A stretch of 64,000 nt of DNA from contig JBAXZR010000001.1 of the NCBI GenBank assembly GCA_041670165.1, positions 52,930 to 116,929 on the forward strand. Reading direction: 5' to 3'. Shown here one piece after another: positions 3 to 47,588 of the stretch; position 1 is the stretch's first letter; each line of letters begins with the position of its first letter. This DNA comes from Clostridia bacterium (GTDB taxonomy: Bacteria > Bacillota > Clostridia > Christensenellales > UBA1242). Both the position numbers and the translations under genes were made by a program. A model generated the notes under the pieces. The model was not told where the DNA came from, ran no database searches, and saw only the letters and a program-made list of their open reading frames with translations.

Positions 3-2345
3 ATTATATTTCTTTCGTATGAAGGTGGTTTGGGTGAATTTTTAATTCTATCGTATACTCAAGGCTTCACCGCTGGTGGAATTTTAATTTCGCTTGTTAT
101 TGCTCCTTTTAAATTTTTGTTAAACAATGCAACTGCAATTGTGTTTTTTGTTGTTTCATTAATTGTTTTTGTTTCACTTATTATTGATTATTTTTACTAT
201 GCTAAAAATATTTATGTTAAAACACAAAGTTCAGTGGTTATTTTGAAAGAGAAAAAAGATGAACCTTTTGAACTAAAAAATATCACTGTTCAAAAAGAAA
301 ATATAAAACCAAGTAGCATAACTCTTGAAGCTAAACTCGAAAACGAAAAGAAAAATGGTGCAAAAATCAAGCTTGGATTGGAAAAAAGAGTAACTAATGA
401 AAAAAGTTCAAACATCAATCTTCCACCGCCACCAATTTTTGAAAGAATAAAAGATGTCAAATTAAATCAAACTGAAACTCAAGCTTTGCCAGTTGAAAAG
501 CCAATTAGTAGAAGAGAATATATTTTGTCTAGACCTCAAACAATTGAACTTAGTCCAAGAATTTCTCCTGTTCCAAAAAAAGTTATTGAAGAAAATGTTT
601 CTGAGCTTAAAACAAATCAAGAAAATCAAATTAAACCTTCAAAGATTTTTCATGAAGAAATTGCTTCTAATTACTTCAAAATAAACAGTGATGAAGAGAA
701 AGAGCATAGCTACATTGCTCCATTTATTGCAAAAAATATTGAAGATGAAAAGCCAATCGTTATGCCAGAAAAAAACATTTTGAACAAGCTGGACAATTTA
801 TCTGGTTCAAACTTTTCTAATAGCTTTGAACAAAATAATATCGTTCAAGAAAAAATGCTTTTTGAAAATGAACTTGAAACTAAAAGACAACAAGAAAAAG
901 CTTATATTGCGCCACCTCTTGATTTAATCACAACAGTTTCAACAAAGCCGTCCTTTGATTCAGAACAAATCATTGCAAAACGCATTCAACTTGAAAATGC
1001 TTTAGAAATGTTTAAAGTTCCAGCCAAAGTTATTGGTGTTATTGTTGGACCTGCGGTAACAAGATTTGAACTTGAAATGCCAGCAGGAATTAGTGTTAAA
1101 AAACTTATAGCTCATGCTGATGATATTGCTCTTGTTCTTGCGGCAAATGGTGGAATAAGAATTGAAGCACCAATTCCCGGAAGGAGTGCAGTTGGTGTTG
1201 AAGTTCCAAATGACAAAATTTCAATGGTTAGTCTAAGAGATATTTTGTCTTCTCAAGAATTTATTTCAAGTAAATCTCCTTTAACTTTTGCCTTAGGAAA
1301 AGATATCAATGGCAATGCTAAGATTTGTGATCTTGCAAAAATGCCACATCTTTTGATTGCGGGAGCAACAAATTCAGGTAAAAGTGTTTGTTTAAATTCT
1401 GTTATTATAAGCCTTATTTACAAAAGCTCTCCAGAAGATTTGAAACTTATTCTTGTTGATCCAAAACGGGTTGAGTTTACAATGTACAATGAACTTCCAC
1501 ACTTACTTCTTCAAAATGTTATAACTGAAACTTCAAAAGCCTTGAATGCACTTAATTGGGCAATCAATGAAATGGAAAGAAGATATGGTTTGTTTCAAAT
1601 TTTGAAAGTTAGAAATTTGGGTGAATATAACTTAAATGAGAAGGTTATTGCAGGCGAAGAAGAAAAATTGCCACTTATTGTAATTATCATCGATGAGCTT
1701 GCAGACCTTATGTCAACAAACAAAAAAGAATTTGAAGAAAAAATTATGAGACTTGCTCAAAAAGCTCGTGCAAGTGGTATTCATCTAATTTTGGCAACAC
1801 AAAGACCATCAGTTGATGTTATTACTGGCACAATCAAAGCAAATCTTACTTCAAGAATTTCTTTTGCGGTTACAAGCTATCAAGATTCAAAAACAATTTT
1901 GGATCAGGCAGGTGCAGAAAAATTGCTTGGAAAAGGTGATATGCTTTTTGCTCCAAGTGATCAGGCTGACCCAAAAAGAATTCAAGGTTGCTTCATTTCT
2001 GGAAAAGAAGTTGAAAATATTGTTGATTATATCATTGCAAACAATGCTCCTTCTTTCAGTGAAGAAGTTGAAAATAGTATATCAAATTCTCATTATGGTG
2101 AAGACCTTAATTCTAGTAGTGCATTCGATGAACTTATGCCACAAGCACTTAAATATGTTATTGAATCAAATCAGGCAACAATATCAGTTCTTCAACGCAA
2201 GCTTGCCATCGGTTTTCCAAGGGCAGCAAGAATAATTGATCAAATGGAAGAAGCAAATTTCATTTCAGCTTCTGATGGTAGCAAACCAAGAACTGTGCAT
2301 ATAACAATGGAACAATTTTTAAAAATATTTGGAGATAAAGAATAA
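3..2345 (+). CDS. ftsK: DNA translocase FtsK/SpoIIIE, 5' end probably cut by the window edge
   Basis: The frame is open from nt 3, and the track ORF begins at a TTG at nt 30. Two N-terminal TM helices, a long linker, Walker A GATNSGKS, Walker B IIIDELADL, and a C-terminal gamma-like winged helix (ISVLQRKLAIGFPRAARIIDQME). Confidence 0.9.
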   Translation: MIFLSYEGGLGEFLILSYTQGFTAGGILISLVIAPFKFLLNNATAIVFFVVSLIVFVSLIIDYFYYAKNIYVKTQSSVVILKEKKDEPFELKNITVQKENIKPSSITLEAKLENEKKNGAKIKLGLEKRVTNEKSSNINLPPPPIFERIKDVKLNQTETQALPVEKPISRREYILSRPQTIELSPRISPVPKKVIEENVSELKTNQENQIKPSKIFHEEIASNYFKINSDEEKEHSYIAPFIAKNIEDEKPIVMPEKNILNKLDNLSGSNFSNSFEQNNIVQEKMLFENELETKRQQEKAYIAPPLDLITTVSTKPSFDSEQIIAKRIQLENALEMFKVPAKVIGVIVGPAVTRFELEMPAGISVKKLIAHADDIALVLAANGGIRIEAPIPGRSAVGVEVPNDKISMVSLRDILSSQEFISSKSPLTFALGKDINGNAKICDLAKMPHLLIAGATNSGKSVCLNSVIISLIYKSSPEDLKLILVDPKRVEFTMYNELPHLLLQNVITETSKALNALNWAINEMERRYGLFQILKVRNLGEYNLNEKVIAGEEEKLPLIVIIIDELADLMSTNKKEFEEKIMRLAQKARASGIHLILATQRPSVDVITGTIKANLTSRISFAVTSYQDSKTILDQAGAEKLLGKGDMLFAPSDQADPKRIQGCFISGKEVENIVDYIIANNAPSFSEEVENSISNSHYGEDLNSSSAFDELMPQALKYVIESNQATISVLQRKLAIGFPRAARIIDQMEEANFISASDGSKPRTVHITMEQFLKIFGDKE

Positions 2346-5539: not shown

Positions 5540-6547
5540 ATGGAAGGAAAAGGAAAGCTATTAGAACAAGCAATTTTGCAAATTGAGAAGCAATTTGGAA
5601 AAGGTGCAATTATGAAACTTGGTGATCAACCAATTCAAGATATTGATGTTATTCCAACTGGTTGTTTAACACTTGATGCCGCTCTTGGAGTTGGCGGAAT
5701 TCCAAGAGGTAGAATTGTTGAAATATATGGACCAGAAAGCTCAGGAAAAACAACTGTTGCTCTTCACATCATTGCAGAAGCGCAAAAACTTGGTGGAACT
5801 GCTGCATTTATTGATGCTGAACATGCACTTGATCCATTTTATGCTCAAAGACTTGGAGTTGATTTAAACAATTTGTTTGTTTCTCAACCTGATAATGGCG
5901 AGCAAGGTCTTGAAATTGTTGAAACACTTGTTAAATCTGGTGAAGTAGATATTATTGTTGTTGACTCTGTTGCAGCTCTCACACCAAAGGCTGAAATTGA
6001 TGGTGAAATGGGTGATAGCCACATGGGTTTACAAGCAAGACTTATGAGTCAAGCACTTAGAAAACTCGCTGGAATTTCAAGCAAAAGCAAAACTAGTATC
6101 ATTTTCATAAATCAACTTCGTGAAAAAGTTGGAGTTATGTTTGGATCTCCAGAAACAACAACAGGTGGAAAAGCTTTAAAATTCTATGCAAGCATTCGTC
6201 TTGATGTTCGCAAAACAGACACAATCAAAGATGGCACAGACATCATTGGAAACAGAACAAAAGTTAAAGTTGTTAAAAACAAACTTGCACCTCCTTTCCG
6301 TATTGCTGAATTTGATATTGTGTATGGAAAAGGTATTTCTCAAGTTGGTTGTTTGCTTGACTTGGCACTTCAGTTTGATATAATTCAAAAAATGGGTGCG
6401 TGGTTTAGTTACAATGACAACAAAATTGGTCAAGGTAAGGAAAATGCAAAAGCTTACATTGAACAAAATAAAGAACTTTTTGCTGAAATTGAAAAGAAAG
6501 TTCGTACACAATTAAAAAATGCCAAATTTGAAACAGCAAATGACTAA
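5540..6547 (+). CDS. recA: Recombinase RecA
   Basis: GPESSGKTT Walker [32 protein letters not shown]; SD AAGGAGA upstream. Confidence 0.97.
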
Positions 6548-6635: not shown

Positions 6636-8930
6636 TTATAAAAACCATTTTTTCTTTTGAGTGTTGCTTGAATCATTCTTTATAATATCGTTTGTACTTG
6701 TTTTGATAAGACTTACTTTGTTGCTTTTTGCAGACAATGATTTTGTGTCATCAATCTGATTTTTAAGTTTTGAAACAAGGTAGAAAGAAACAATTTCGCC
6801 ATTTTTAATTGCAGTTTCAAAGCTTACTTTGCCTGTTCTATTTTCAAATTTGGCAAGAGAAATGCCATCATCTTTTAGTTCTCTAAACAATTCATATTCA
6901 AAAATTTTGTCAGAATCAAATTCCAAAATTGCTTTGTTGCCTTCAATTTTTCCTTGAAGCACAACAGGATCAATTTTTGTAAATCTTTCTGAAACCGACT
7001 TTGGCAAATTTAAAACGGAGAAAAGCTCAGTCTTTGTATATCTTTCTGGTGTGAAATCATTTGCAAGCATAATGCAGTGATTTTCTTCTAGTTCAGCCAA
7101 ATCGATTTTTGCTTCAACAACACTGCTTGGCATTTCAAAGCTATCAGGTTCATCTTTTGAATATATTTTGTCAAAATATGTATAGATTGCACTTGCTGGC
7201 TGTCTTCCACCAGTGAAATAATTGTCCATAGGTTGATTGTTTAAAAATCCAATCCAAACCGCAACAGTATCTTTTGTTGTGTATGCAACACAGTTTGCAT
7301 CTAAGTTTTGTTTTCCGTCGATTGTTCCCACCGTTCCTGTTTTTGCTGAAACATCATATGGCAAAGTGCCAAGTTTTTTTGCTGTTGTGTTTTTGTATTT
7401 TGTGTTTAGCATCGAAGTTAAAAGGTATGCTGTGTCGTTTCTAATAATTTCTTTATTAAATTTATATTTTTCATATATAATTTTTCCATTTTCGTCTTCA
7501 ATTTTTCTTATAAAACTTGCTTTATAAAATTGTCCGCTATTTGAAAATGGGACATAAGAATTAGCAAGTTCAAGAATTGTTGTGCCTTTTGTGAAACCGC
7601 CAAGAGCCAGTGCATAGCCTGTGTCTTTTTGCTCAAATGGAATACCAAGCTCGCTAGCATAATTAATGCAATTATCAATACCAACATAACTCATAATTTT
7701 TACTGCAGGTACATTTAAAGATTTTGAAATTGCATCTTTTGCTGAAACAAATCCTTCATATGTTTTTGTGATATTTTTTGGGGAATATCCACTAAAAGAT
7801 ATTTCTTCATCTAGAATTTGTGAAGATGGTGAAATTATGTTTTGATTAAGTGCAGGTGCATAAATTAGCACTGGTTTGATTGCTGAACCGGGTTGGCGTC
7901 TTACCCCTGAGATTGGCAATGAATAGCTAGAATAATAAGCGGAAACTCCGCCAGTTTCATTATTAATAGAAATTCCACAATAATCAGTTTTTGTATTTTC
8001 TTTTTCTAGTGCATTTACAAGTGCTTCTTGTTTGTCTTTTTCATAATAGGTATAAATTTTGTATTTATAAGACGCAATTTGCTTTTGTGAAAGTCCAAGA
8101 ATATCTTCAGCTTCAGAAATTGCTTCTCTTGTGTATGTGTTGAAATCGTCTTCTTTTTGTGAAATATTAAGTATAATTGGCTTTTGTAACTCGTTTTTTG
8201 TCGTTTCCAACGAAATTATTCCATCTTTTTCCATTTGCTTAAGAACAAGGTTTCTTCTTTTAAGTGCTGCTTCTGGTTTTGAGATGGGTGAGTAGTGCCC
8301 TGGGGCTTTAATTAAACCAGCAAGCAAAGATGCCTGTGAAAGATTGAGTTCTTGTGGAGTGCAAGAAAAATAATATTTACTAGCTTCTGCCAAGCCATAG
8401 CAACCACCGCCAAAATATATGTCATTGAGATAAGCTTCAAAAATTTTTTCTTTTGATATTTTCTTTTCCATTTCTAATGCTAGCTTGATTTCTTTTATTT
8501 TTCTAATCAGAGTTTTTTCGTTTGTTAAATGTGTGTTTTTAATTAGTTGTTGACTTATCGTTGACGCACCTTGTCTTCTTTGACCTGATAAAATATTTTC
8601 TGACATTGCTTTGATTATTCTTTTAAAATTAATACCATTGTGATAATAAAAATTTTTGTCTTCAATAGAAATGAATGCTTGTTTAACAATTTCTGGAACT
8701 TCAGAAAGTTTTACGCCATTTGTTGGGTGGTTTTCATTCATGATAGCTTTGTCTTCAAGAGATAATAATGTTGCTGAAGCTGAAGAAGAATGAATTAATG
8801 ATTCATCAAAATGGGTTGAACTTGTTACACTGAAAGCATATAGGGTAAAAAAAGTTACACTAAAAAACATCATCGCCAACATAAGCAAGAATACATTTTT
8901 AACAATATGCTTAAATTTAGTTTTTCTCAT
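6636..8930 (-). CDS. Class A penicillin-binding protein (glycosyltransferase plus transpeptidase)
   Basis: N-terminal TM anchor, GT51 motifs (ISIEDKNFYYHNGINF, GASTISQQL), transpeptidase SxxK (GSAIKP) and KTGT. Confidence 0.9.
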   Translation of the reverse strand: MRKTKFKHIVKNVFLLMLAMMFFSVTFFTLYAFSVTSSTHFDESLIHSSSASATLLSLEDKAIMNENHPTNGVKLSEVPEIVKQAFISIEDKNFYYHNGINFKRIIKAMSENILSGQRRQGASTISQQLIKNTHLTNEKTLIRKIKEIKLALEMEKKISKEKIFEAYLNDIYFGGGCYGLAEASKYYFSCTPQELNLSQASLLAGLIKAPGHYSPISKPEAALKRRNLVLKQMEKDGIISLETTKNELQKPIILNISQKEDDFNTYTREAISEAEDILGLSQKQIASYKYKIYTYYEKDKQEALVNALEKENTKTDYCGISINNETGGVSAYYSSYSLPISGVRRQPGSAIKPVLIYAPALNQNIISPSSQILDEEISFSGYSPKNITKTYEGFVSAKDAISKSLNVPAVKIMSYVGIDNCINYASELGIPFEQKDTGYALALGGFTKGTTILELANSYVPFSNSGQFYKASFIRKIEDENGKIIYEKYKFNKEIIRNDTAYLLTSMLNTKYKNTTAKKLGTLPYDVSAKTGTVGTIDGKQNLDANCVAYTTKDTVAVWIGFLNNQPMDNYFTGGRQPASAIYTYFDKIYSKDEPDSFEMPSSVVEAKIDLAELEENHCIMLANDFTPERYTKTELFSVLNLPKSVSERFTKIDPVVLQGKIEGNKAILEFDSDKIFEYELFRELKDDGISLAKFENRTGKVSFETAIKNGEIVSFYLVSKLKNQIDDTKSLSAKSNKVSLIKTSTNDIIKNDSSNTQKKKWFL

Positions 8931-10373: not shown

Positions 10374-12989
10374 ATGGCACTTTCACCAATGATGCAACAT
10401 TATTTAACCACCAAAGAAAAGTATAAAGATACAATCCTTTTTTATCGTTTGGGTGATTTTTACGAAATGTTTTTTGAAGATGCAATAACAGTTTCCAAAG
10501 AACTTGATCTCACATTAACAGGAAAAGATTGCGGACTTGATGAAAGAGCTCCAATGTGCGGAATTCCATATCATGCTGCAGAAAATTACATTTCAAAGCT
10601 AATAACTTTAGGTTTCAAAGTTGCAATTTGTGAGCAACTTACAGAGCCTACAAAAGGTAATAAACTGGTTGAACGAGATGTTGTAAGAATTGTTACTGCA
10701 GGAACGGTTACAGAAGACAGTATGCTTGAAGAAACAAAAAATAATTTTCTTGCTGCTGTTTGTGTTAATGGCTTTAATGTTGGTGTTTCATATTGCGACC
10801 TTACAACTGGTGAAACTTATGCAAGCGACATGGAAGATGACAAAGACTTCACAATGCTTTCAGATTTTCTTGCTCGTGTTTTACCCGTTGAGATAATTTG
10901 TTCGCACGAAGCAACTAGCATAGGCAACAAACTTGCCACAACACTTCTTAATCAAACACCAAAATTTTTTGAAAAAAATGAAATTTCTCTTGAAGATGGA
11001 AAAAATGTTTTAAAAGAGCAGTTTGGGGAAAATTTTGAAAATGAATTTGGTTTTAGTGGTGAAAAGGAAAGCATCAAAGCTGTTGCAATGTTAACAGAGT
11101 ATCTTAAAGAAACACAAAAAAAATCGTTTTCTCATTTGAACACAATTATTGTAGTTAAACCAAATAGTTTCATGAATCTAGATTTCAACACAAGACGCAA
11201 TCTTGAAATTTCTGAAACAATGAATGGCAGAAAAAAGCGTGGCTCATTACTATGGCTACTTGACAAAACTGAAACTAGCATGGGAGCAAGGCTTCTTAAG
11301 CAGTGGGTTGATGAACCTTTGTTTGATGAAAGAGGAATTGCATTAAGGCTTGCTGGTGTTAATGAGCTTTTTTCTTCAAATAATAAACGAGAATCTCTTA
11401 TTCAAGTGCTTTCAAAATTTTGTGATATTGACAGAATATGTGGCAAGATTTCGCTTGGAAATCTTAATCCAAGAGATTGTCTAAGTCTTGCTTCTTCGCT
11501 TTCTAGTGTGCCTGAACTTAAAAAACAATTAACAGGATTCAGCAGTAAAATTCTTGTTTCATTACAAGGTGGTATTGATAATTTTGAGCCTATTGAGAAT
11601 GCAATTTTTGATGCAATAAACCTAGATGCTCCAGCACTTTTAACTGGCGGCGGCTATATTAAAAATGGTTACAATGCTCAACTTGATCAGTTAAGAAATT
11701 TTGCATCTGGCGGAAAAGATGTACTTACAAAAGTTGAAGCAAAAGAAAGAGAAAGAACTGGAATTAAAAATTTAAAAATTTCTTACAATCGTGTTTTTGG
11801 TTATTATATTGAAGTTAACAAATCTCAATCAAATCTTGTTCCATTTGATTACATAAGAAAGCAAACTGTTGCCAACAATGAAAGATACATAACTGAAGAA
11901 CTTAAAGAACTTGAAGAAAAAATTGTTTCAAGCGAAGAACAATCAACAAAACTTGAACTTAAAATTTTTGAAACAATAAGACAATATCTTCTTTCAAATG
12001 TTGCTCATCTTCAAAAATTAGCAAAAATTGTGGCTAAAGTGGATTGTTTACAATCTCTCGCAACTGTTGCAGTTCGCCAAAATTATTGCATGCCAAAAGT
12101 AAGTTCAAAAATCAACAAAATTGACATTGTTGATGGTAGACACCCAGTTATTGAAGCGATTTTAAAAGATGATCAATTCATTTGTAACAACACATTATTA
12201 AATGACTCCACAGACAGAACCATGATTATAACTGGACCAAATATGGCAGGAAAAAGCACATATATGCGTCAAGTTGCCTTGATTACATTCATGGCGCATA
12301 TCGGCTCATTTGTGCCTGCCAAAAAGGCTGAGATTTCACTTACTGACCGAATTTTTACTCGTGTTGGTGCGAGTGATGACTTGGCTCTTGGACAAAGCAC
12401 TTTCATGGTTGAAATGCTTGAAGTTGCTACAATATTAAAAAATGCAACTTCAAAAAGTCTGTTAATTCTTGATGAAATTGGAAGAGGCACAGCAACATTT
12501 GATGGGCTTTCTATTGCATGGGCAGTTATGGAATATATTTCAAAAAATATCACAGCAAAAACATTGTTTTCAACTCATTTCCACGAACTAACCGAACTTG
12601 AAGGTGTTTTGGACGGAGTAAAAAATTATCGTATTTCTGTTAAAGAAATTGGTGACAAAGTTATTTTTTTAAGAAAAGTTGTTCGTGGTGGAACAAATAA
12701 AAGTTTTGGTATTGAAGTTGCAAGGCTTGCTGGAGTTCCTAATGAAGTTATTAGTAGAGCAAAAGAAATTTTGTCTAAGCTTGAAAAATCTGATATTAAT
12801 GTCATGTTTCCAGCTTTTAAAGAAGAAGACAAATCAAAACAGGTTGAAGACCTTAGCATAGCAAAAGAGATTATGAGAACTCTCGCGGACACTAATATTA
12901 ATCAAATTTCACCAATGCTAGCCTTTGACATGCTTGCAAATTTGGTTGAAAAAGCCAAAAAGGGGGCAGGAATAAATGGCAAAAATTAA
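10374..12989 (+). CDS. mutS: DNA mismatch repair protein MutS
   Basis: MALSPMMQHY...FYRLGDFYE N-terminus, Walker A GPNMAGKST, DEIGRGT. SD AGGAG lies 5 nt upstream of ATG 10374; the track start at 10359 is a TTG. Confidence 0.95.
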   Translation: MALSPMMQHYLTTKEKYKDTILFYRLGDFYEMFFEDAITVSKELDLTLTGKDCGLDERAPMCGIPYHAAENYISKLITLGFKVAICEQLTEPTKGNKLVERDVVRIVTAGTVTEDSMLEETKNNFLAAVCVNGFNVGVSYCDLTTGETYASDMEDDKDFTMLSDFLARVLPVEIICSHEATSIGNKLATTLLNQTPKFFEKNEISLEDGKNVLKEQFGENFENEFGFSGEKESIKAVAMLTEYLKETQKKSFSHLNTIIVVKPNSFMNLDFNTRRNLEISETMNGRKKRGSLLWLLDKTETSMGARLLKQWVDEPLFDERGIALRLAGVNELFSSNNKRESLIQVLSKFCDIDRICGKISLGNLNPRDCLSLASSLSSVPELKKQLTGFSSKILVSLQGGIDNFEPIENAIFDAINLDAPALLTGGGYIKNGYNAQLDQLRNFASGGKDVLTKVEAKERERTGIKNLKISYNRVFGYYIEVNKSQSNLVPFDYIRKQTVANNERYITEELKELEEKIVSSEEQSTKLELKIFETIRQYLLSNVAHLQKLAKIVAKVDCLQSLATVAVRQNYCMPKVSSKINKIDIVDGRHPVIEAILKDDQFICNNTLLNDSTDRTMIITGPNMAGKSTYMRQVALITFMAHIGSFVPAKKAEISLTDRIFTRVGASDDLALGQSTFMVEMLEVATILKNATSKSLLILDEIGRGTATFDGLSIAWAVMEYISKNITAKTLFSTHFHELTELEGVLDGVKNYRISVKEIGDKVIFLRKVVRGGTNKSFGIEVARLAGVPNEVISRAKEILSKLEKSDINVMFPAFKEEDKSKQVEDLSIAKEIMRTLADTNINQISPMLAFDMLANLVEKAKKGAGINGKN

Positions 12990-17460: not shown

Positions 17461-18156
17461 TTAGAATTTTCTAAATAAGCCAACAACTTTTCCTAAAATT
17501 TGGACATTTTTTGCATAAATTGGTTCAAATGCAGGATTTTCAGGTTGAAGTCTTATGCAATCTTTTTCTCTATAAAAAGTTTTTACAGTGGCATTTCCAT
17601 CAATCATGGCAACAATAACTTCTCCATTTTCCGCATCGTTTTTTTGTTCAACAACAACTTTGTCACCATTTAAAATTCCAATGTTTTGCATACTGTTACC
17701 AACAATTTTCAAAATAAATAGGTTTTCACCAGAAATTAGATTTTTTGGAATTTCATAGCTGTCCAAATAATTTTCTTCGGCAAAAATTGGAATGCCTGCT
17801 GCAACTTTTCCGATGTAAGGAACTTTTTTAAAAGAATTTTTATCAATTTGTTCTTCGTCTTCGTTGAAATTTTTAACAATTTCTAATGTTCTTTTTTTGT
17901 TTGCTGAGCGTTTGATTAAACCACGCTCTTCAAGTTCATTAAGATAATATTGAATTGTTGCAGTGGAAGTTACATTAACGCATGGCATCATTTCACGAAT
18001 TGAAGGGGAGTATGAATGCTCTTTGATATATTTATCAATAAAAGATAAGAGTTCATTTAATCTCATATCACTTTTTAATTTTGTTGTTCTTCTTTTTAAT
18101 GCTCCAGAATTAAATTTGCTTTTTTCAAAAAAAATTTCTTTTTCATAATTTTCCAT
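17461..18156 (-). CDS. lexA: SOS repressor LexA with an N-terminal extension of roughly 25 aa
   Basis: wHTH (YSPSIREMM...STATIQYYLNELEERGLI), cleavage site VAAGIPI, S24 peptidase GNSM...K. GAGG SD upstream of ATG 18156. Confidence 0.92.
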   Translation of the reverse strand: MENYEKEIFFEKSKFNSGALKRRTTKLKSDMRLNELLSFIDKYIKEHSYSPSIREMMPCVNVTSTATIQYYLNELEERGLIKRSANKKRTLEIVKNFNEDEEQIDKNSFKKVPYIGKVAAGIPIFAEENYLDSYEIPKNLISGENLFILKIVGNSMQNIGILNGDKVVVEQKNDAENGEVIVAMIDGNATVKTFYREKDCIRLQPENPAFEPIYAKNVQILGKVVGLFRKF

Positions 18157-18221: not shown

Positions 18222-18235
18222 CAAACAAATGTTTG
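18222..18235. promoter_or_regulatory. Candidate LexA operator (variant Cheo/SOS box)
   Basis: Perfect palindrome CAAAC-AAAT-GTTTG, with the same 5-N4-5 geometry as the Firmicute CGAAC-N4-GTTCG box. It overlaps the putative -35 of a lexA promoter (TATACT -10 on the - strand). Confidence 0.45.
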
Positions 18236-18467
18236 AAATATTTTAAACAACATAAAAACATTTTTCAAAAAAAATATAAATTTTGTAATTGTTATGATAA
18301 ATATTTATAAAAATATAAACTAATTTAAATAAAGAATTGTGATAAACTTATTCGATAAGATTGAAAAATGAAATTATATTATTTATATACATTTCTTCAT
18401 CTATAAAACTTAAATAGAATAGAAAAAAAATATAATTATGTAAGCTTATAAATAATGTTTAAGATTA

Positions 18468-19505
18468 TTATCTTAATTGAATTTTTCCAGCAGCATCTCT
18501 ACGAATGTCTTCACTTATAGCAGCATAATGCTTTTTGGTGGTGTTGACATCTTTATGCCCAAGAATATCCGCAACAACATATATATCTTTTGTTTCACGA
18601 TACAAATTTGTGCCAAATGTGCTTCTCAATTTGTGGGGAGAAATATTTTTTAATGGTGAAGCAATAAGAGCAAATTTTTTAACCAAATTTTCTACAGCTC
18701 TTGGACAAATTCTTTTTTTCTGTAAGCTTAAAAACAAGGCTGGTTGAGAGTCATTTGGTTGCAGAATTGTTTTTCTGAAATCAATCCAACATTTTAGTGC
18801 ATCAGCCACTTCATCAGAAAAATATAAAACAACTTGATTACCGCCTTTTCTTGTGATTTTGAAAGCATTTGCTTCAAAATCAATGTCTGAAACATTTAAT
18901 CCAACGCATTCACTTATTCTAACTCCAGTTCCAAGAAACAAGGAGAGCATGGCAACATCACGCACACTTGTTTTATTCAAAAATTCTTTTTGCTTTTTTG
19001 AAAGTCCATTACCATTTTCAGCAACATTAAGAATTGAAGCAACTTCATTAATTTCTAATCGAATAATATCTTTTTGATGAAGTTTTGGGAGTTTAACTTT
19101 TGTGGTTTCATTTGAGGCTATTAGGTCTTTGTTAAATAAAAATTGAAAAAATTTACGAATTGAAGATAGTTTACGACTTTTACCTCTTTCTGTGTTTATA
19201 AAAGTTTTTCCTTTAACACTATACCTTGAGATATAACTTAAAAAATATTCAATTTGTGTAGATTTAATAGTTGAAAGTTGGCTAAGTGTTATTTGCTTAA
19301 TTGATGAGTCAAAAATTTTTGATGACAAAAAAGAGAAAAAGCATTTCAAATCTCTTGCATAGCCGAGTCTTGTAAGTTCAGAAGTGCATTGTTCAATTGA
19401 TATAAAAAAATCAAAGCAAAATGAGGGCAGAGTAGAAATGATTTTGCTTGTATCTTCATTTGCATTATTAGCTCTTGTAACAAAATAATCATCACTTTTT
19501 TTCAT
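18468..19505 (-). CDS. Tyrosine recombinase / integrase (XerC/XerD-like)
   Basis: C-terminal catalytic pattern ...HKLRSTFGT...ILGHKDVNTTKKHY, N-terminal SAM-like core-binding domain. Start moved to ATG 19505 (MKKSDDYF), because the longer track ORF runs through the serS promoter. Confidence 0.85.
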   Translation of the reverse strand: MKKSDDYFVTRANNANEDTSKIISTLPSFCFDFFISIEQCTSELTRLGYARDLKCFFSFLSSKIFDSSIKQITLSQLSTIKSTQIEYFLSYISRYSVKGKTFINTERGKSRKLSSIRKFFQFLFNKDLIASNETTKVKLPKLHQKDIIRLEINEVASILNVAENGNGLSKKQKEFLNKTSVRDVAMLSLFLGTGVRISECVGLNVSDIDFEANAFKITRKGGNQVVLYFSDEVADALKCWIDFRKTILQPNDSQPALFLSLQKKRICPRAVENLVKKFALIASPLKNISPHKLRSTFGTNLYRETKDIYVVADILGHKDVNTTKKHYAAISEDIRRDAAGKIQLR

Positions 19506-20889: not shown

Positions 20890-20905
20890 ATAAATGGAGT
20901 GCGAA

Positions 20906-21847
20906 ATGAACAAGATTCAAATTACAAAGTCAATAATAAATGATTTTGCAAGTGCAGAATCTAACGAAAGTGTTAGAAAAGCATTTGAGCATCTTCAATT
21001 CGCATTTGATGAAATAATCGAAACCCTTTCAAAAAAAAATCCTTTTATCAATCCAGAAAAATGTCTTTTTTTTCTTAGAGATGACTTTTTTTGGGACACA
21101 CAAACTCCAGAAAGTGAAATGAAATTTGTGTTAGCAGTTGAGTCAGCACAAATTGAATTAAATAGTGCAAAACTTATTCTAAGCAAGAAATCACTTTTTA
21201 AAAAAGAATTGAAAGCATTTTTTCTTAAATCGAGAAAAAAAAGAAGGAAGAAAAAAAATAAAGAGCTTAGTTCAACTCTTGTGCTTAAACCAGAATCATA
21301 TGATATTGTTGCGTTTCAAAAAGAATTCTTTTTAAATTTAGCTGACTATTTTGCAACAACTACAAAACTTAGAAACATGCAAGATGAAATTCAAATTTTA
21401 TCAAAGGAAGAGTTTGGTATAAACATAAGCATTAGATTTGCTGTTAAATCGGAAAATGTGTTTAAGTTTTGGAATGATGATGCAAATGCGTTTGATGTAA
21501 GAAATTTCTATAATGAAAATCAAATTGTTGAAAAGAAAAACAAAGAAACAAAAAAAATATTTCTTAAAATGGTAAAAGTTTATTCAAGTATTTTTGATGT
21601 TCTTAATGCAGGTCAAAACAGCCATTATTTAGCGTTTTGCTTGCTTAAAAATGTTCCAAATGAGTTGTTTGTTTCAAACATATTTGATTGCTTTTTAAAA
21701 ATTTCAAATTATTTATATCATACAAGTTTTAAAAATATGAAAGGAATTATTTTTTCAGACAAATTGTTATTTGGCGAAAATAATGAAACAGATATAAATT
21801 TTTTAGAAGCAAAAAAACTTATAAGAATGGTTTGCAATGCACTATAA
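20906..21847 (+). CDS. Hypothetical protein with an internal poly-basic insert
   Basis: Long ORF with a GGAG SD 7 nt before ATG 20906. KSRKKRRKKKNKE insert. No family recognised with confidence. Confidence 0.6.
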   Translation: MNKIQITKSIINDFASAESNESVRKAFEHLQFAFDEIIETLSKKNPFINPEKCLFFLRDDFFWDTQTPESEMKFVLAVESAQIELNSAKLILSKKSLFKKELKAFFLKSRKKRRKKKNKELSSTLVLKPESYDIVAFQKEFFLNLADYFATTTKLRNMQDEIQILSKEEFGINISIRFAVKSENVFKFWNDDANAFDVRNFYNENQIVEKKNKETKKIFLKMVKVYSSIFDVLNAGQNSHYLAFCLLKNVPNELFVSNIFDCFLKISNYLYHTSFKNMKGIIFSDKLLFGENNETDINFLEAKKLIRMVCNAL

Positions 21848-22248
21848 AATAGAGGTTAGAAAGCCTTTATTTTTTTAATTTTTTATAAGATAAAAAAATG
21901 TTTAAAATAAACATTTTACTAATTGTAGTTTAGTTTTATATTTATAATATGTTAGTTTTTCAAAATTCAAAATATAAAAGATTATTAGCTTAAATTAATT
22001 TTAAAATATAGATAATATTATAAACCACAATGATTTTGTGTTTTACCTTTGGTTAACTATTCGTAAAAGCTGTCTTTTGCGAATAGTTGTTCGTGCTAAT
22101 TTTTTAATAAAAATACTACCCTATACTAAATACAAACATTGAAATGTTTGATAAATATATATAAAAAATTTCAAATAACTAAAATAATTTGTATATAATT
22201 TTTAAAATTTTTCTAAAACAAAAATATACATATCTATCAATATTTTTT

Positions 22249-22457
22249 ACAAACTTTCTTATATTAAATTTTTTATTACTTTTTAAGTAAAATATTTACG
22301 AACTTTTTAAATGATTTATACATACTTTCTAAAATAAACACAAACTTTCTTATATATTTTTACAATTTTTATTATATGATTTTAAAACTGACTTGTAATA
22401 AATAAATTAGACAAACTTTCTTAAAATTTTCAATTTTTTTTCATACTTCAAAAATAA
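22249..22457 (+). repeat. Cluster of six same-orientation imperfect direct repeats, core ACAAACTTTCTTA
   Basis: ACAAACTTTCTTAT at 22249 and 22340, ACAAACTTTCTTA at 22411, and variants ACGAACTTTTTAA (22298), ACATACTTTCTAA (22320), TCATACTTCAAAA (22441). Spacing is irregular: 49, 22, 20, 71 and 30 nt. Confidence 0.5.
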
Positions 22458-22592
22458 TTTTTAAAGCTAGAAAAAGTATTAATACCTTGCAATTGATTTA
22501 AGTTTTTTAACATTTTGCATTTTTCTAACTTTTATCATTTTAAAAGATTTAAAAGTATTTCAAAATATTTTAAATTTTTTAGTTTGAATATA

Positions 22593-23240
22593 TTAAAACT
22601 TGATTTTCGGGTCAAGAACATAACTGTATTCTTTTAATTGTTTGCGTCTTTCTTTGTAATCTGGTACAAAACATTCTACACTTTTCCAAAAAATAGTTGA
22701 ATGGTTCATATGCTTTAAATGGCTAATTTCATGATAGATTACATATTGAATCAAGTCTTTTGGCAACATAAAAAGTTTTACATTGAGCATGATTTGTTTT
22801 TTACTGTTACAACTGCCCCAACTTCTTCTCAAACAATATAATTTTAATTTACTATTTTTAAGTGTAGTTTTAATGATGCTTTCATTAAACAACCTTTCAA
22901 GATTATTCTCTGCAAGAACTCTAAATTGTTTTAATACTTTTGTGTTTATTCTAATTGAATTTTCTTTTAAATTATTAAATAAAATTTCATTACAATCTTG
23001 ATGACAATATGCTTTTTCACCAAAAATTTGTAAACAGTTGCCACATAAAATTTCGTCAATTTTTAAGTTTTGAATTTGTTTTTGCTTTGAACATTTATCT
23101 AACCAAAGTTTATGTTTTTTAACAAAGTCTTCTATTGCTTCTGTTTTCATTTTTAATGGAGCTGATACTTCTGCTAAATCGCAATCCAACAATTTGAGTG
23201 TAATCGACTTGCGTCTTGTTCTTTTTATAATTATTTTCAT
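22593..23240 (-). CDS. DUF45/YgjP-like (WLM/M48-like) zinc metallohydrolase
   Basis: HEISHLKHMNHS (HExxH...H) near the C-terminus and the usual length for this family. Confidence 0.8.
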   Translation of the reverse strand: MKIIIKRTRRKSITLKLLDCDLAEVSAPLKMKTEAIEDFVKKHKLWLDKCSKQKQIQNLKIDEILCGNCLQIFGEKAYCHQDCNEILFNNLKENSIRINTKVLKQFRVLAENNLERLFNESIIKTTLKNSKLKLYCLRRSWGSCNSKKQIMLNVKLFMLPKDLIQYVIYHEISHLKHMNHSTIFWKSVECFVPDYKERRKQLKEYSYVLDPKIKF

Positions 23241-28837: not shown

Positions 28838-28912
28838 AGGGGAGTGGCTCAACGGTAGAGTAGTGGTCTCCAAAACCATTGGTTGCGAGTTCGAATCTCT
28901 CCTCCCCTGCCA
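28838..28912 (+). tRNA. trnW: tRNA-Trp (anticodon CCA), CCA 3' end encoded
   Basis: Acceptor stem AGGGGAG/CTCCCCT, D-loop GCTCAACGGTAGAG, anticodon loop CU-CCA-AA, T-loop GTTCGAATC (the T-stem has one C:U mismatch), discriminator G plus CCA. Confidence 0.9.
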
Positions 28913-36679: not shown

Positions 36680-37699
36680 TTACTTCATCTGACTCAAGAA
36701 TCTTATGTCATTTTCAAACATCATTCTTAAATCTGGAACTTTGTTTTCAACCATCGCAAGTCTGTCAACTCCTGGACCAAAAGCAAATCCAGAATATTTT
36801 GTGCTGTCAATTCCACAATTTTCAAGCACTTTTGGATTTACCATTCCTGCTCCCAAAAGTTCCATCCAACCAGTACCTTTGCAACGAGTGCAACCATTTC
36901 CACCACAGTTTGGACATGTGCAGTCAACTTCAACACTTGGCTCAGTAAATGGGAAATATGAAGGTCTAAATCTGATTTTTGTGTTTTCACCAAACAACAT
37001 TCTAAGTAAGTTCGTGAGCATGCTTTTCAAGTCAACAAGTGAAACCTTTTCATCAACAACAAGTCCTTCAAATTGATGGAACATTGGTGTGTGCGTTGGG
37101 TCATTGTCAACTCTGTATGTTTTTCCTGGTGAAACAATTTTGAATGGTGGTTTTCTTTTTTCCATTTCATGAATTTGAACACTTGAAGTTTGTGTTCTAA
37201 GCATAATATTTTGAGCAAGATAAAAAGAATCTTGCATATCTCTTGCTGGGTGGTCCTTTGGAACATTTAAAGCTTCAAAATTGTAATAATCGGTTTCAAT
37301 TTCTGGTCCAGAAACAACTTCAAATCCAAGTTCAACGCACGCCTCTATAAGTTTGTTGAAAGTGCGTGTGAGAGGGTGCAAAGCTCCAATTTCATGCTTC
37401 TTAGCGGGTTCTGTTATGTCTATACTTTCTGTCGCTAGAGCTTTTTCAAGTTCTTGTTTAGAAAGATTTGTTTCTAGTTCAGCAATCTTTTCTTCAATTG
37501 TTTGTCTTGCCTCATTCACAAGTGCTCCAACAATTGGTCTATCCTCTGCTGAAACATCTTTCATTCCACGCAAAATTGAAGTAAGCAATCCTTGTTTACC
37601 TAAATATTTTACTTTTAAATTTTGAGCTTCAACAGTGGATTTTACGCTCAAAATCTCCTGAAAAAATACTTGTAAAATTTGTTCAATTTTTTCTTTCAT
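36680..37699 (-). CDS. pheS: Phenylalanyl-tRNA synthetase alpha subunit
   Basis: Class II core motifs (HPARDMQDSFY, FRPSYFPFTEPS, GAGMVNP). AAGGAGAA SD. Confidence 0.95.
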   Translation of the reverse strand: MKEKIEQILQVFFQEILSVKSTVEAQNLKVKYLGKQGLLTSILRGMKDVSAEDRPIVGALVNEARQTIEEKIAELETNLSKQELEKALATESIDITEPAKKHEIGALHPLTRTFNKLIEACVELGFEVVSGPEIETDYYNFEALNVPKDHPARDMQDSFYLAQNIMLRTQTSSVQIHEMEKRKPPFKIVSPGKTYRVDNDPTHTPMFHQFEGLVVDEKVSLVDLKSMLTNLLRMLFGENTKIRFRPSYFPFTEPSVEVDCTCPNCGGNGCTRCKGTGWMELLGAGMVNPKVLENCGIDSTKYSGFAFGPGVDRLAMVENKVPDLRMMFENDIRFLSQMK

Positions 37700-37963
37700 G
37701 TTTTCTCCTTATAATTAAAAAAAACTTCGCCCCTAAATATTAGGGCGAAGAAGTTAAATTCGCTGTACCACCTAATTTCTTGCAAATAAATTTGCAACTC
37801 TTTAAGCCTTTTACGCAGGCAAACGCCAATTCTTACTATTAGTTCAGAAAAGGTGCTAGAAAGTGAATTCAAATTTATGATTATGCTTTGTCTTTCAGCC
37901 CATGAACAAAGCTCTCTAAAAAACCATTTTGTAAATTTTACTAGTCTTTCATCTTCGCATTTT
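37700..37963 (-). promoter_or_regulatory. T-box leader (tRNA-Phe-responsive) with terminator/antiterminator
   Basis: The - strand carries AGAGAG, a GAA-UUC-A specifier context (UUC is the complement of plus 37865-37867), the T-box sequence AATTAGGTGGTACAGCGAA (plus 37759-37777), and the terminator CTTCGCCCTAA/TTAGGGGCGAAG followed by a T8 run (plus 37717-37750). Confidence 0.85.
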
Positions 37964-37969
37964 CAATGA

Positions 37970-45482: not shown

Positions 45483-46043
45483 TTATTTAACTCTTTCCAT
45501 ATAAGTTGCTGTTCTTGTGTCAACACGAATTTTTTCACCATTGTTGATAAATAGTGGAACATTGATGTGGAGTCCTGTTTCAAGTATGGCAGGTTTGTTG
45601 CCAGACTTACTTGTATCTCCTTGAATTCCGGGTTCACAATCAACAATTGTGAGTTCAACAAAATTTGGTGGAACAACTGAAAAAGCTGATCCTTTGTAGA
45701 ACTGGATTGTTGCCATACCATTTTCAACGATATAGTTTAAACAATCACCAACTTGTGATTTGTTAAGAGGAATTTGGTCATATGTTTCCATATCCATGAA
45801 ATAATACAACTCACCTTCGTTGTACAAATATTGCATATCTTTTTTATCAATAACTGCAATTTGAAATTTGTCTGAAGGGTTGAATGTAAGTTCATTAACT
45901 TGACCAGAAATAATATTCTTTATTTTTGCTCTAACAAATGGTGATCCTTTTCCTGGTTTAACATGCAAAAAGTCTACAACGATATAAATGTTACCATCCA
46001 TTTCAAATGTTACACCTTTGCGAAAATCTCCTGCACTGATCAT
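45483..46043 (-). CDS. efp: Elongation factor P
   Basis: [20 protein letters not shown]...[17 protein letters not shown]; 186 aa. Confidence 0.96.
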
Positions 46044-46302
46044 AAATATATCTCCTTAAACTGGAGTAGTCTATCACAATTACAGGTGTTTTGTCAATTT
46101 GAAAATGATGTTATTTCTAATTAGTTGAAGAAAATTAGTGTTTTTTAGTAGAAAAATAATAAAATTGCTTGCAAAATTGAATGTATAATGTTAAACTCTC
46201 AAAGCTAAATGAAACTCTTAGTAAAATTAACAAAATTTGATAACAGTTTCTATGGTTATGTGGGTTTTAAAAATAAATCCCCTAAAATGATATGGAGGAA
46301 AC

Positions 46303-46491
46303 ATGAGCAGAGTTTGTGAAATTTGTGGTAAAGGAAAGATGCCTGGTTGCACAGTAAGCTTTTCAAACCGTAAGGCCAATCGCCAATATGAAGTAAATTT
46401 GCAATCAACAACAGTTGAAATTGATGGCAAGCTTAAAAAAGTTAAAGCTTGTACAAAATGCAAAAAAACACTTGCCAAGTATGCTAAGTGA
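46303..46491 (+). CDS. rpmB: 50S ribosomal protein L28
   Basis: MSRVCEICGKGKMPGCTVSFSNRKANRQYEVNLQ; GGAGGAA SD. Confidence 0.95.
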   Translation: MSRVCEICGKGKMPGCTVSFSNRKANRQYEVNLQSTTVEIDGKLKKVKACTKCKKTLAKYAK

Positions 46492-46493
46492 TT

Positions 46494-46528
46494 AAAAACA
46501 AGCCAAAATTTTAAGGCTTGTTTTTTTT
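46494..46528. terminator. Bidirectional terminator shared by rpmB (+) and the small ORF (-)
   Basis: AACAAGCC (46497-46504) pairs with GGCTTGTT (46515-46522), followed by T8 on the + strand and T5 on the - strand. Confidence 0.8.
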
Positions 46529-46542
46529 ATCTTATGTATACT

Positions 46543-46614
46543 CTATTGCTTTTTAATAAAAAGCTTAAGAAGAAAAGAAATTAATTTGGGAACTTTTATA
46601 CAAACAATTTTCAT
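46543..46614 (-). CDS. spoVM: Probable stage V sporulation protein M (23-aa amphipathic peptide)
   Basis: Hand translation gives MKIVCIKVPKLISFLLKLFIKKQ*. SD AAAGGAGAA with 5-nt spacing. It shares M1 K2, I6 K7 and P9 K10 with B. subtilis SpoVM as I remember it (MKFYTIKLPKFLGG...). It occupies the same rpe/rpmB position as B. subtilis spoVM. Too short for the ORF track. Confidence 0.65.
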   Translation of the reverse strand: MKIVCIKVPKLISFLLKLFIKKQ

Positions 46615-46863
46615 TTGTTCTCCTTTATTATTCAATTATATGTAAAAGTTTGTTCTTTGGTGATTGATTAAATTTAATAAAAAGTAAGTAAATGCATTTA
46701 TTAATTGAAACAATTACTTTTCGTTTCAATTTAAAACATATTAATAAAAATTGTAAATCATGAGAATTGCCATAATTTAACAATTATGAAAATTAATTTG
46801 GATATGTAAGAAATAAATTATTTTTTTATGAAAATAAGCTATATAAACTAGTTTTTTTTTAAT

Positions 46864-46888
46864 TAAAAAAATTGACTTGTTGTCAATT
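46864..46888 (-). terminator. Rho-independent terminator after rpe
   Basis: The - strand reads AATTGAC-aacaa-GTCAATT followed by T7. Confidence 0.65.
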
Positions 46889-46925
46889 TTTAATGTTAAT
46901 TTTTGTAGTCTATGCTCAGTTTTGC

Positions 46926-47588
46926 CTATCTAAGGGAATCAATTGACTCTTTAGGATTTGAACTTAAAAACAAATAACTACCGCTAACAACAATGTCAGC
47001 CCCGCAAGACTTAATTTCTTCTGTGTTTTCGGGATTAACTCCACCATCAACTTCAATTAAAAATTTAAAATTGTTTTGTTCTCTAAAAGTATTTAGTGAT
47101 TTTATTTTTGATAAAGATGAAGGAATAAATAATTGACCGCTTTTTCCGGGTTCAACACTCATGACAAGAACCAAATTGCATAGTGGCAAAAAATCATATA
47201 TTTCTGAAACTAATGTTTGTGGTTTAAAACTAATTCCTGCAAGTGCTCCAAGCTTTTTAATGTTTTCTAAACACTCAATTACTTCACTTTTTTTTCCGAA
47301 ACTTTCATAATGCACAGTTATGATATTTGCTCCAGCTTTAATATATTCTTTAACATGTTCTTCAGGGTGAACAATCATTAAATGAGCTTCAATTGGAACA
47401 ATACAATTTGAGTTAATTTGTTTAACAAAAGAAGCATCATATGTTATTTCTGAAACAAAATTGCCGTCCATAACATCACAATGAATAAAATCAGCCCCTG
47501 CTTCTTGAAGAGCTTTTGCATATTCAATAACCTGAGATTTAATTTTTACTGGGTGCGTTGAAGGTGCAATTCTAAGCTTTTTTACCAT
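46926..47588 (-). CDS. rpe: Ribulose-phosphate 3-epimerase
   Basis: HCDVMDGNFV, MSVEPGKSGQ, DGGVN motifs. Confidence 0.93.
   Translation of the reverse strand: MVKKLRIAPSTHPVKIKSQVIEYAKALQEAGADFIHCDVMDGNFVSEITYDASFVKQINSNCIVPIEAHLMIVHPEEHVKEYIKAGANIITVHYESFGKKSEVIECLENIKKLGALAGISFKPQTLVSEIYDFLPLCNLVLVMSVEPGKSGQLFIPSSLSKIKSLNTFREQNNFKFLIEVDGGVNPENTEEIKSCGADIVVSGSYLFLSSNPKESIDSLR

Follow-up and report, generated by a model that had tools for sequence, protein, structure and literature searches.

Good descriptions of chromosome dimer resolution exist for XerCD and for four systems that use a single recombinase, XerS, XerH, XerA, and XerL, and FtsK is the usual partner of Xer/dif systems. Among the single-recombinase systems of bacteria, XerS and XerH were listed and XerL was added in a 2022 paper (PMC9765430), and archaeal XerA is also covered by a 2017 review (PMC5357621); neither source mentions Clostridia. 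The XerS site, difSL, lies immediately upstream of xerS and has the arms TTTCCGAAAA and TTTTCTTGAAA, and the left arm of the XerH site, difH, is AGTTATGAAAA (PMC5357621, PMC1914069). Here, we describe a 64,000-nucleotide stretch of a Clostridia bacterium (GTDB lineage Christensenellales, UBA1242; GenBank assembly GCA_041670165.1, contig JBAXZR010000001.1), referred to throughout as the window, in which a 745-bp gene-free spacer separates two convergent genes. We consider it quite probable that this spacer is the replication terminus of a low-GC Clostridia chromosome and that a 34-bp palindrome within it is the dif-type site of an Xer recombinase encoded nearby (Table 1).

The palindrome consists of two 11-bp arms around an asymmetric 6-bp center, and AAC/GTT flanks lengthen the dyad at both ends. 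We class the site and its recombinase as an Xer/dif system of a kind that would work like XerS/difSL of streptococci and lactococci, and not as XerS/difSL itself, because the recombinase misses the family cutoffs and the site sequence differs. On the side of likeness, both recombinases are about 345 to 356 amino acids (aa) long, and the window protein aligns end to end with the XerS model (NF003462, its best NCBIfam match, over model positions 4 to 356 of 360). In most relatives of the window, the site lies directly upstream of the recombinase gene, so that the two form one module, as in XerS/difSL; both systems also share the terminus position, arms that end in a ...GAAAA-like and begin with a TTTTC-like sequence, and an FtsK with a gamma domain (PMC1914069, PMC5357621). 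On the side of difference, the window recombinase scored 173.7 bits against the XerS cutoff of 267 and is not an XerS equivalog, and the site here is TATTCGYAAAA-N6-TTTTRCGAATA, compared to the 31-bp difSL. The dyad is far more symmetric than that of difSL, whose center is reported to be larger than 6 bp, the hosts are uncultured Clostridia, and in the lineage of the window two genes separate xer from the site.

Other described systems share some of these features. XerH/difH of Helicobacter and Campylobacter also combines one recombinase with a nearby site, with 10- to 11-bp arms, inner AAAA/TTTT, and a center of about 6 bp, but the protein similarity is weak (8.9e-08 for XerH, Protein Data Bank [PDB] entry 5jjv, compared to 4e-20 for XerD, the best PDB match), the outer arm sequence is another, and so is the phylum. 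As in XerL/dif of the Legionellales, the inverted repeat made by the arms is long and nearly uninterrupted, and mobile elements mimic the site, LME-1 in that system (PMC9765430) and many viral contigs in this one. However, xerL lies more than 400 kb from dif, whereas the two are usually adjacent here. The 28-bp XerCD/dif system of Escherichia coli and Bacillus subtilis has the same 11-6-11 architecture, terminus position, and Xer-group recombinase. Unlike in XerCD, the arms in the window are nearly identical, which suggests that one recombinase is used rather than two. When the window was searched for the dif of B. subtilis or E. coli, the best matches (19/28) equaled the best in shuffled sequence. 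A look-alike of classical dif, ATTATGTAAGCT, just beyond the xer stop codon was also rejected, as it was not above chance.

The spacer lies at the replication terminus

In the left 21 kb of the window the GC skew is near +0.1, and beyond 30 kb it is near -0.13; genes lie mainly on the plus strand on the left and mainly on the minus strand beyond 30 kb. This combined switch in skew and gene orientation is a signature of a replication terminus. The per-base cumulative GC skew reaches its maximum at position 22095, inside the spacer, before leveling off as far as about 30 kb. That the convergent gap and the terminus coincide had not been recognized in a preliminary description of the spacer, made from the letters of the window.

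Table 1. Features of the window, with the proposed dif-type site first
Feature	Position	Strand	Size or sequence	Remarks
dif-type site	22055-22088		AAC TATTCGTAAAA GCTGTC TTTTGCGAATA GTT	Left arm 22058-22068, center 22069-22074, right arm 22075-22085
Gene-free spacer	21848-22592		745 bp	15.7% GC; between convergent genes; apex of cumulative GC skew of the window inside
Xer-like tyrosine recombinase	18468-19505	-	345 aa	Pfam Phage_integrase and Phage_int_SAM_1
FtsK/SpoIIIE-family DNA translocase	30-2345	+		Pfam FtsK_SpoIIIE 6.4e-60, FtsK_alpha 2.9e-24, FtsK_gamma 8.5e-24 (alpha, motor, and gamma domains)
Left flanking gene	20894-21847	+	317-aa open reading frame (313-317 aa)	Syntenic with serS upstream
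Right flanking gene	22593-23240	-		YgjP-like metallopeptidase; Pfam YgjP-like 3.1e-36
Repeat copy 1	22249-22264	+	ACAAACTTTCTTA (TAT)	Exact
Repeat copy 2	22340-22355	+		Exact; 16 nt identical to copy 1
Repeat copy 3	22411-22423	+	13 nt	Exact
Two degenerate repeat copies	22298-22332	+	ACGAACTTTTTAA; ACATACTTTCTAA	22298, 3 mismatches; 22320, 2 mismatches
AT-only hairpin	21895-21917		AAAATGTTTA-aaa-TAAACATTTT	10-bp stem; not conserved; folding z = -2.45 (21848-21947)
8+8 palindrome	22133-22150		CAAACATT-ga-AATGTTTG	Not conserved
lexA	17461-18156	-		Pfam Peptidase_S24 and LexA_DNA_bind
Candidate Cheo-type LexA box	18224-18237		CAAACAAATGTTTG	68 bp upstream of lexA, in the 312-bp xer-lexA gap; read in sequence

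The palindrome is conserved in divergent relatives and linked to xer

Related loci were located through homologs of the 317-aa protein encoded to the left of the spacer, and they keep the order serS, 317-aa gene, spacer, ygjP (minus strand), and padR. The neighbor protein is 62% identical in L003 and L004 (spacer of 1094 bp), 64% in L009 (at least 674 bp, to the contig end), 61% in L011 (at least 525 bp, to the contig end), and 28% in L005 to L008 (164 to 187 bp). Pairwise blastn and k-mer comparisons against L003 and L005 to L008 found a single robustly conserved block in the spacer, the palindrome, which reads AAC TATGCGCAAAA GCAGTA TTTTGCGCATA GTT in L003 and TATGCGTAAAA CTTGTG TTTTACGCATA GTT in L005. 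Where one arm has changed, the other has changed to match, with T..A in the window and G..C in relatives. The palindrome is the strongest of the spacer (15-bp stem, DNA fold of -12.1 kcal/mol, z = -6.85) and occurs once in the 64-kb window.

The preliminary description had missed this palindrome, had flagged a set of direct repeats, an 8+8 palindrome, and a 10-bp AT hairpin, and had proposed a search for conservation in relatives. Such a comparison gave a divided answer, in that the unflagged palindrome was kept across very divergent relatives and the flagged repeats and both flagged palindromes were conserved in no relative examined. One further contig that was retrieved came from the same strain as L003. 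A scan of GTDB genomes with YgjP gave one distant, nonsyntenic match among the matches listed, and contigs from other samples that reach the right side of the spacer were uninformative (the PadR product was without a record, and the ABC ATPase contig was broken elsewhere).

To extend the comparison beyond syntenic loci, metagenome contigs were scanned with a loosened pattern, TATNCGNAAAANNNNNNTTTTNCGNATA; at least 120 loci were listed, and the figures on site loci given here rest on these. A tblastn match to the Xer of the window at E <= 1e-5 was present in 46/120 listed loci. In all 43 listed loci with a match at E <= 1e-20 (38 to 57% identity), the site lay upstream of the xer start, at a median distance of 129 bp. 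Positions that the pattern left free were nearly invariant, with T at position 4 in 36/43 and flanks of the form A-(A/T)-C ... G-(T/A)-T, while the six central bases varied among xer-linked sites. Fixed arms around a free center argue for recognition of the arms by a protein, not for an RNA stem. The center also had a preferred orientation in the 43 loci, reading S-A-C-A-R-S toward xer, and the window site read in that frame, TATTCGCAAAA GACAGC TTTTACGAATA, fits this consensus form. As in the window, lexA was a neighbor in 18 of the listed site loci and methionine gamma-lyase in 11, and in many relatives the 3' end of ygjP points at the site. GC skew could be assessed in 24 listed site loci with at least 2.5 kb on each side; 16 were positive on the left and negative on the right, and 1 was the opposite.

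Because these loci had been chosen by their site, three loci were fetched by the Xer protein alone (P0029, P0085, and P0036, 21 kb each). Every one of them contains exactly one perfect site, 1 to 4 kb upstream of xer, and two of the three show the same skew pattern. In the protein-selected locus L259, the site lies between ygjP and the homolog of the 317-aa gene, the same arrangement as in the window.

Proposed mechanism of dimer resolution

If the site works as difSL and difH do with XerS and XerH, each 11-bp arm (TATTCGYAAAA and TTTTRCGAATA) would be bound by one recombinase monomer. Sister sites would be paired at the septum, with the FtsK encoded at 30-2345 as the probable agent, and cleavage and exchange of strands would take place where the arms meet the asymmetric center GCTGTC. 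Chromosome dimers would be resolved in this way at 22055-22088 by the Xer-like recombinase, and the other approximately 700 bp of the spacer would represent rapidly turning-over, lineage-specific DNA. We infer the recombination activity, the dependence on FtsK, and the use of a single recombinase from these better-described systems.

Several observations weigh against this assignment. The metagenome loci were selected by the site pattern, so that conservation at its fixed positions is circular, which leaves the unconstrained positions, the flanking bases, and the gene context as the informative features. The recombinase falls under the equivalog cutoffs for XerS, XerC, and XerD, and in the window the site is not adjacent to xer, lying 2.55 kb upstream and separated from it by serS and the 317-aa gene. 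Skew alone cannot place the terminus to the base because the plateau spans about 22 to 30 kb. The count of sites and the survey for XerC, XerD, and classical dif cover the 64-kb window rather than the whole chromosome. Finally, the direct repeats described below have exact 13- to 16-nt cores in flanks that do not align, as a selected binding array would, which makes filler the default explanation rather than a demonstrated one.

Copies of the site on viral contigs and in inverted pairs

A site scan of viral contigs (IMG/VR) listed at least 120 matches (L132 to L251). About 101 of these, mostly on 55- to 60-kb uncultivated virus genomes, share the exact sequence AAC TATTCGGAAAA GTTAGG TTTTGCGAATA GTT, and we note the metagenome loci L019, L020, L120, L055, L060, and L098 together with these. 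In L132, for example, the site (7529-7562) is intergenic and is preceded by a partial arm, CTATTCGTGAAC, with no recombinase within about 2 kb. Carriers of this kind may be phages or phage-plasmids that use the host Xer for integration or for dimer resolution.

Inverted pairs of sites, 128 to 162 bp apart, were found in L093 (4876-5031), L092 (243-398), L035 (270-460), L116 (411-600), and L119 (2547-2736). The centers of the pairs, GAGTAT/ATACTC, GACTAT/ATAGTC, and GAATTG/CAATTC, are exact reverse complements, which means that the two sites stand in inverted orientation. The L093 pair lies between divergent genes, one for a PIG-L deacetylase and the other a 161-aa open reading frame (ORF), and no xer orthologue was found on the inverted-pair loci. 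This arrangement is a candidate invertible promoter switch that would use Xer-type sites, and the exact reverse complementarity of paired centers is indirect evidence for recombination at this type of site.

The same pairs bear on whether the 34-bp palindrome could instead be a shared transcription terminator, or an operator for the neighboring PadR-like protein or for LexA. Its position between convergent genes and its potential 15-bp hairpin would suit a terminator, and dimeric regulators also bind dyads with matched arm changes. However, an intrinsic terminator scan of the spacer found 0. In L003 and L005 the palindrome lacks a following T-run, and in L005 an obvious terminator stands beside it as a separate element. 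Neither a terminator nor an operator would account for a site that accompanies xer in 43/43 listed loci whatever its other neighbors, that occurs in inverted pairs with exactly reverse-complementary centers and in phage genomes, and that coincides with the skew switch, and we find this explanation hardly credible.

If the dif-type assignment is extended to all of these loci, the site and recombinase could represent an undescribed xer-dif module that stands beside XerS, XerH, XerA, and XerL, is widespread in gut and anaerobe Clostridia, is exploited by phages of an abundant family, about 55 to 60 kb in size, and serves in inverted pairs as a phase-variation switch. We offer this only tentatively, as possible but on balance somewhat doubtful. 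Full-text searches of the searchable literature, made both with the arm sequences and on Xer/dif systems of Clostridia, turned up no account of such a module and site in this class. Should such a module exist, the lineage-specific, same-orientation repeats next to dif could act in terminus function as a polar element. If the dif-type assignment itself holds, the site would provide an exact sequence marker of the terminus in thousands of uncultured Clostridia genomes and metagenome-assembled genomes, for use in assembly checks, replichore orientation, and estimation of growth rate from coverage. It would also predict phages or elements that integrate via the host Xer, and the same enzyme may drive small invertible switches.

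Direct repeats and the remainder of the spacer

The spacer differs from the rest of the window in composition, with a GC content about half of the approximately 30% found for the window. Just three ORFs were present in it (33 to 40 aa, with GTG or TTG starts), none of them credible. The only longer intergenic gap of the window, 46043-46926, carries an rpmB-like ORF (46303-46491, plus strand, 62 aa, unlisted), which leaves the spacer as the largest truly gene-free gap. Among the listed site loci, 62 site-bearing intergenic gaps had a median of about 300 bp and a range of 91 to 1686 bp, placing the 745 bp of the window in the upper 12%. The coordinates and the ORF list agree with the preliminary description in its claim of a gene-free, noncoding gap of unusual size between convergent genes, and its 8+8 palindrome and AT hairpin are both present where it placed them. 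The surplus DNA is mostly on the ygjP side and includes the repeats; 508 bp lie between the site and the ygjP stop codon, compared to 67 to 76 bp in L005 and L084.

Exact copies of ACAAACTTTCTTA occur three times in 64 kb (22249, 22340, and 22411), all on the plus strand and all in the spacer, with 0 expected from 100 shuffles. Six copies had been claimed; besides the three exact ones, two degenerate copies (22298 and 22320) stand, or three if a 3-mismatch copy at 22362 that was absent from the earlier list is counted. The sixth, at 22441 (TCATACTTCAAAA), has about 6 mismatches, is not among the matches with <=3 mismatches, and is not a copy. Matches at that looser threshold number 136 across the window versus 110 +/- 11 expected, slightly above chance. 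The degenerate copies at 22298 and 22320 belong to a unit of about 42 nt (22298-22339) that appears again, about 70% identical, at 22387-22430, suggesting local duplication. Autocorrelation of the repeats was weak (z of about 3 at lags 71 and 91 and about 2 at lags 22 and 11), and TRF called no 21- to 22-bp periodic array in the spacer. Core lengths of 13 to 16 nt and spacings of 91 and 71 bp bear out the earlier statement that this is not a CRISPR (clustered regularly interspaced short palindromic repeats) array.

The motif ACAAACTTTCTTA was absent from all of the related loci (L003/L004, L009, L011, and L005 to L008), and the repeat zone had no match in plasmids and phages by blastn or in viral contigs by a two-copy pattern scan. 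Most likely, the repeats and the two flagged palindromes are fast-evolving, AT-rich, lineage-specific filler that arose by local duplication or insertion beside dif and that presumably lacks a function. No part of the spacer is less conserved than these repeats, which had first drawn attention to it.

Two other explanations of the repeats are kept, a binding array and the scar of an element, because of the exact cores in dissimilar flanks and of an independent array in L003. In that locus, positions 11348-11477 of the 1094-bp spacer hold a 40-bp unit in 2.5 copies (88% identity) and a 28-bp unit in 2 copies (100%). These arrays are centered on a palindrome, GTTAACAT-TTTTGC-ATGTTAAC, and the window contains one such word in similar form, TTTAACATTTTGCAT, at 22506-22520. 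The tandem array of L003 (GTTAACATTTTTGCATGTTAAC and its flanks) is unrelated to the repeats of the window and is found across the conserved block from where they would lie.

A functional protein-binding array in the terminus, whether iteron-like, a polar fork barrier, Xer accessory sequences, or a terminus-organizing site, would explain why three exact 13- to 16-nt cores with dissimilar flanks, none of them expected, share one strand within 175 bp. The degenerate copies are interspersed with these so that starts are spaced 49-22-20-22-49 bp, and the array lies 160 to 360 bp from the dif-type site. The separate tandem array of L003 can be read either way, as a second array in the same spacer or as one that differs in sequence and occupies the other side of the site. 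The absence of the motif from all related loci, the weak periodicity, the lack of an adjacent rep-like or terminator-protein gene, and the fact that distant relatives with spacers of 164 to 187 bp do without any array make this explanation unlikely. Plasmid and phage iterons are likewise direct repeats that share one orientation within very AT-rich DNA, and some of the intervals here are near 21 to 22 bp, but iterons differ in having an adjacent initiator gene, regular spacing, conservation, and plasmid or phage matches. The iteron array of a replicon origin was rejected on the irregular spacing, the three exact copies, the weak periodicity, the lack of a rep gene in the window, and the unconserved motif. 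A role like that of KOPS (FtsK-orienting polar sequences) was also rejected; the k-mer strand bias was a general purine-rich one only, sub-words of the motif were not notably skewed, and 64 kb provides too little data for this comparison.

The extra DNA could also be a decayed element that integrated at dif via the host Xer, such as a phage, plasmid, or satellite of the IMEX (integrative mobile elements exploiting Xer) type, with the repeats as its former origin or regulatory repeats. More than 100 viral contigs carry sites of the same type, most of them identical in sequence, and spacer length is variable (164 to 1094 bp in syntenic relatives and 91 to 1686 bp at site loci). Extra genes, about 3.6 kb of them, surround the site in the spacer-equivalent gap of L258. 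A half-site-like sequence with 2 mismatches is present at 21914-21926, but with 16 in the window such half-sites are as frequent as chance predicts, the repeat zone has no second dif-like site at its border, the spacer contains no coding remnant, and it shows no similarity to plasmids, phages, or viral contigs. We regard this origin as quite unlikely. Both the iteron-like array and the decayed element had been proposed in the preliminary description; either may apply to the repeats.

The gap in L258 (a relative on an 899-kb contig, GCA_002919055.1; 3744-7400) carries these genes on either side of the site at 6114, a DUF8370 protein (454 aa) and four small ORFs. From this locus, the neighborhood of dif appears to be an insertion hotspot.

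One or more small noncoding RNAs had also been suggested, together with a comparison to Rfam, and a long intergenic gap at a conserved position that contains promoter-like hexamers is where such an RNA might be sought. Rfam 15 gave no family for the spacer at gathering score and two chance matches at E <= 10 (E of 4.7 and 6.8), and the spacers of relatives were negative. The segment 22148-22247 on the minus strand folds better than shuffled sequence (-19.2 kcal/mol, z = -3.86), a borderline value with 26 windows tested. The repeat zone, in contrast, is almost structureless, at -1.6 to -4.8 kcal/mol per 100 nt with z >= 0, and has no folding potential. Promoter-like sites number 9 versus 11.4 in shuffles, no terminator was called, nothing outside the palindrome is conserved, and the palindrome itself, with its fixed arms and free center, has the pattern of protein recognition. 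A small RNA is accordingly very improbable.

Smaller features of the spacer were also noted. The AT hairpin at 21895-21917 may, judging from its sequence, act as a weak terminator of the 317-aa gene. The word AAACATT, common to both flagged palindromes, occurs 4 times versus 0.7 expected, and relatives have words like it in their spacers; this enrichment is suggestive but not robust. Three assemblies (L253, L254, and L255; JGI 3300014206, Logan SRR6485349, and ENA ERZ27247361) carry an identical 313-aa neighbor gene, are 100% identical to the window up to base 21956, 109 bp beyond the stop codon, and all stop exactly there. This shared end reflects either loss of coverage in DNA of 15% GC, perhaps from the same reads, or a branch in the assembly graph from structural variation that starts at 21957. 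Inverted repeats at the spacer ends (21942-21979 and 22565-22600) that resemble terminal inverted repeats are 71 to 77% complementary, were among 126 such pairs in AT-rich DNA, and were attributed to chance.

Recombinase and other genes of the window

An alternative 420-aa reading of the recombinase ORF overlaps serS; NCBI and relatives call proteins of 342 to 351 aa. Scores for the other equivalog models were also below their cutoffs (XerC, 166 versus 335; XerD, 153 versus 330). Homologs fall into at least 8000 clusters at E <= 1e-30, named just "tyrosine-type recombinase/integrase." The 317-aa protein left of the spacer had no Pfam, NCBIfam, or PHROG match in the window. Its homologs have weak precomputed matches to PF26305 (CD_NTase_C), and its synteny with serS and the terminus extends across the clade.

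A CodV-like recombinase cluster of orthologous groups (COG) in gut bacteria was predicted by one metagenomic study to be under SOS control (PMC3998124), and that prediction may reflect the lexA-xer adjacency seen here. The flagged palindrome at 22133-22150 has CAAAC/GTTTG half-sites, as does the candidate LexA box, with a spacing of 8 compared to 4. Elsewhere in the window, a T-box leader (37738-37964, minus strand, 108.9 bits) lies upstream of the gene at 36680-37699, and a tRNA-Trp(CCA) gene lies at 28838-28912 on the plus strand.

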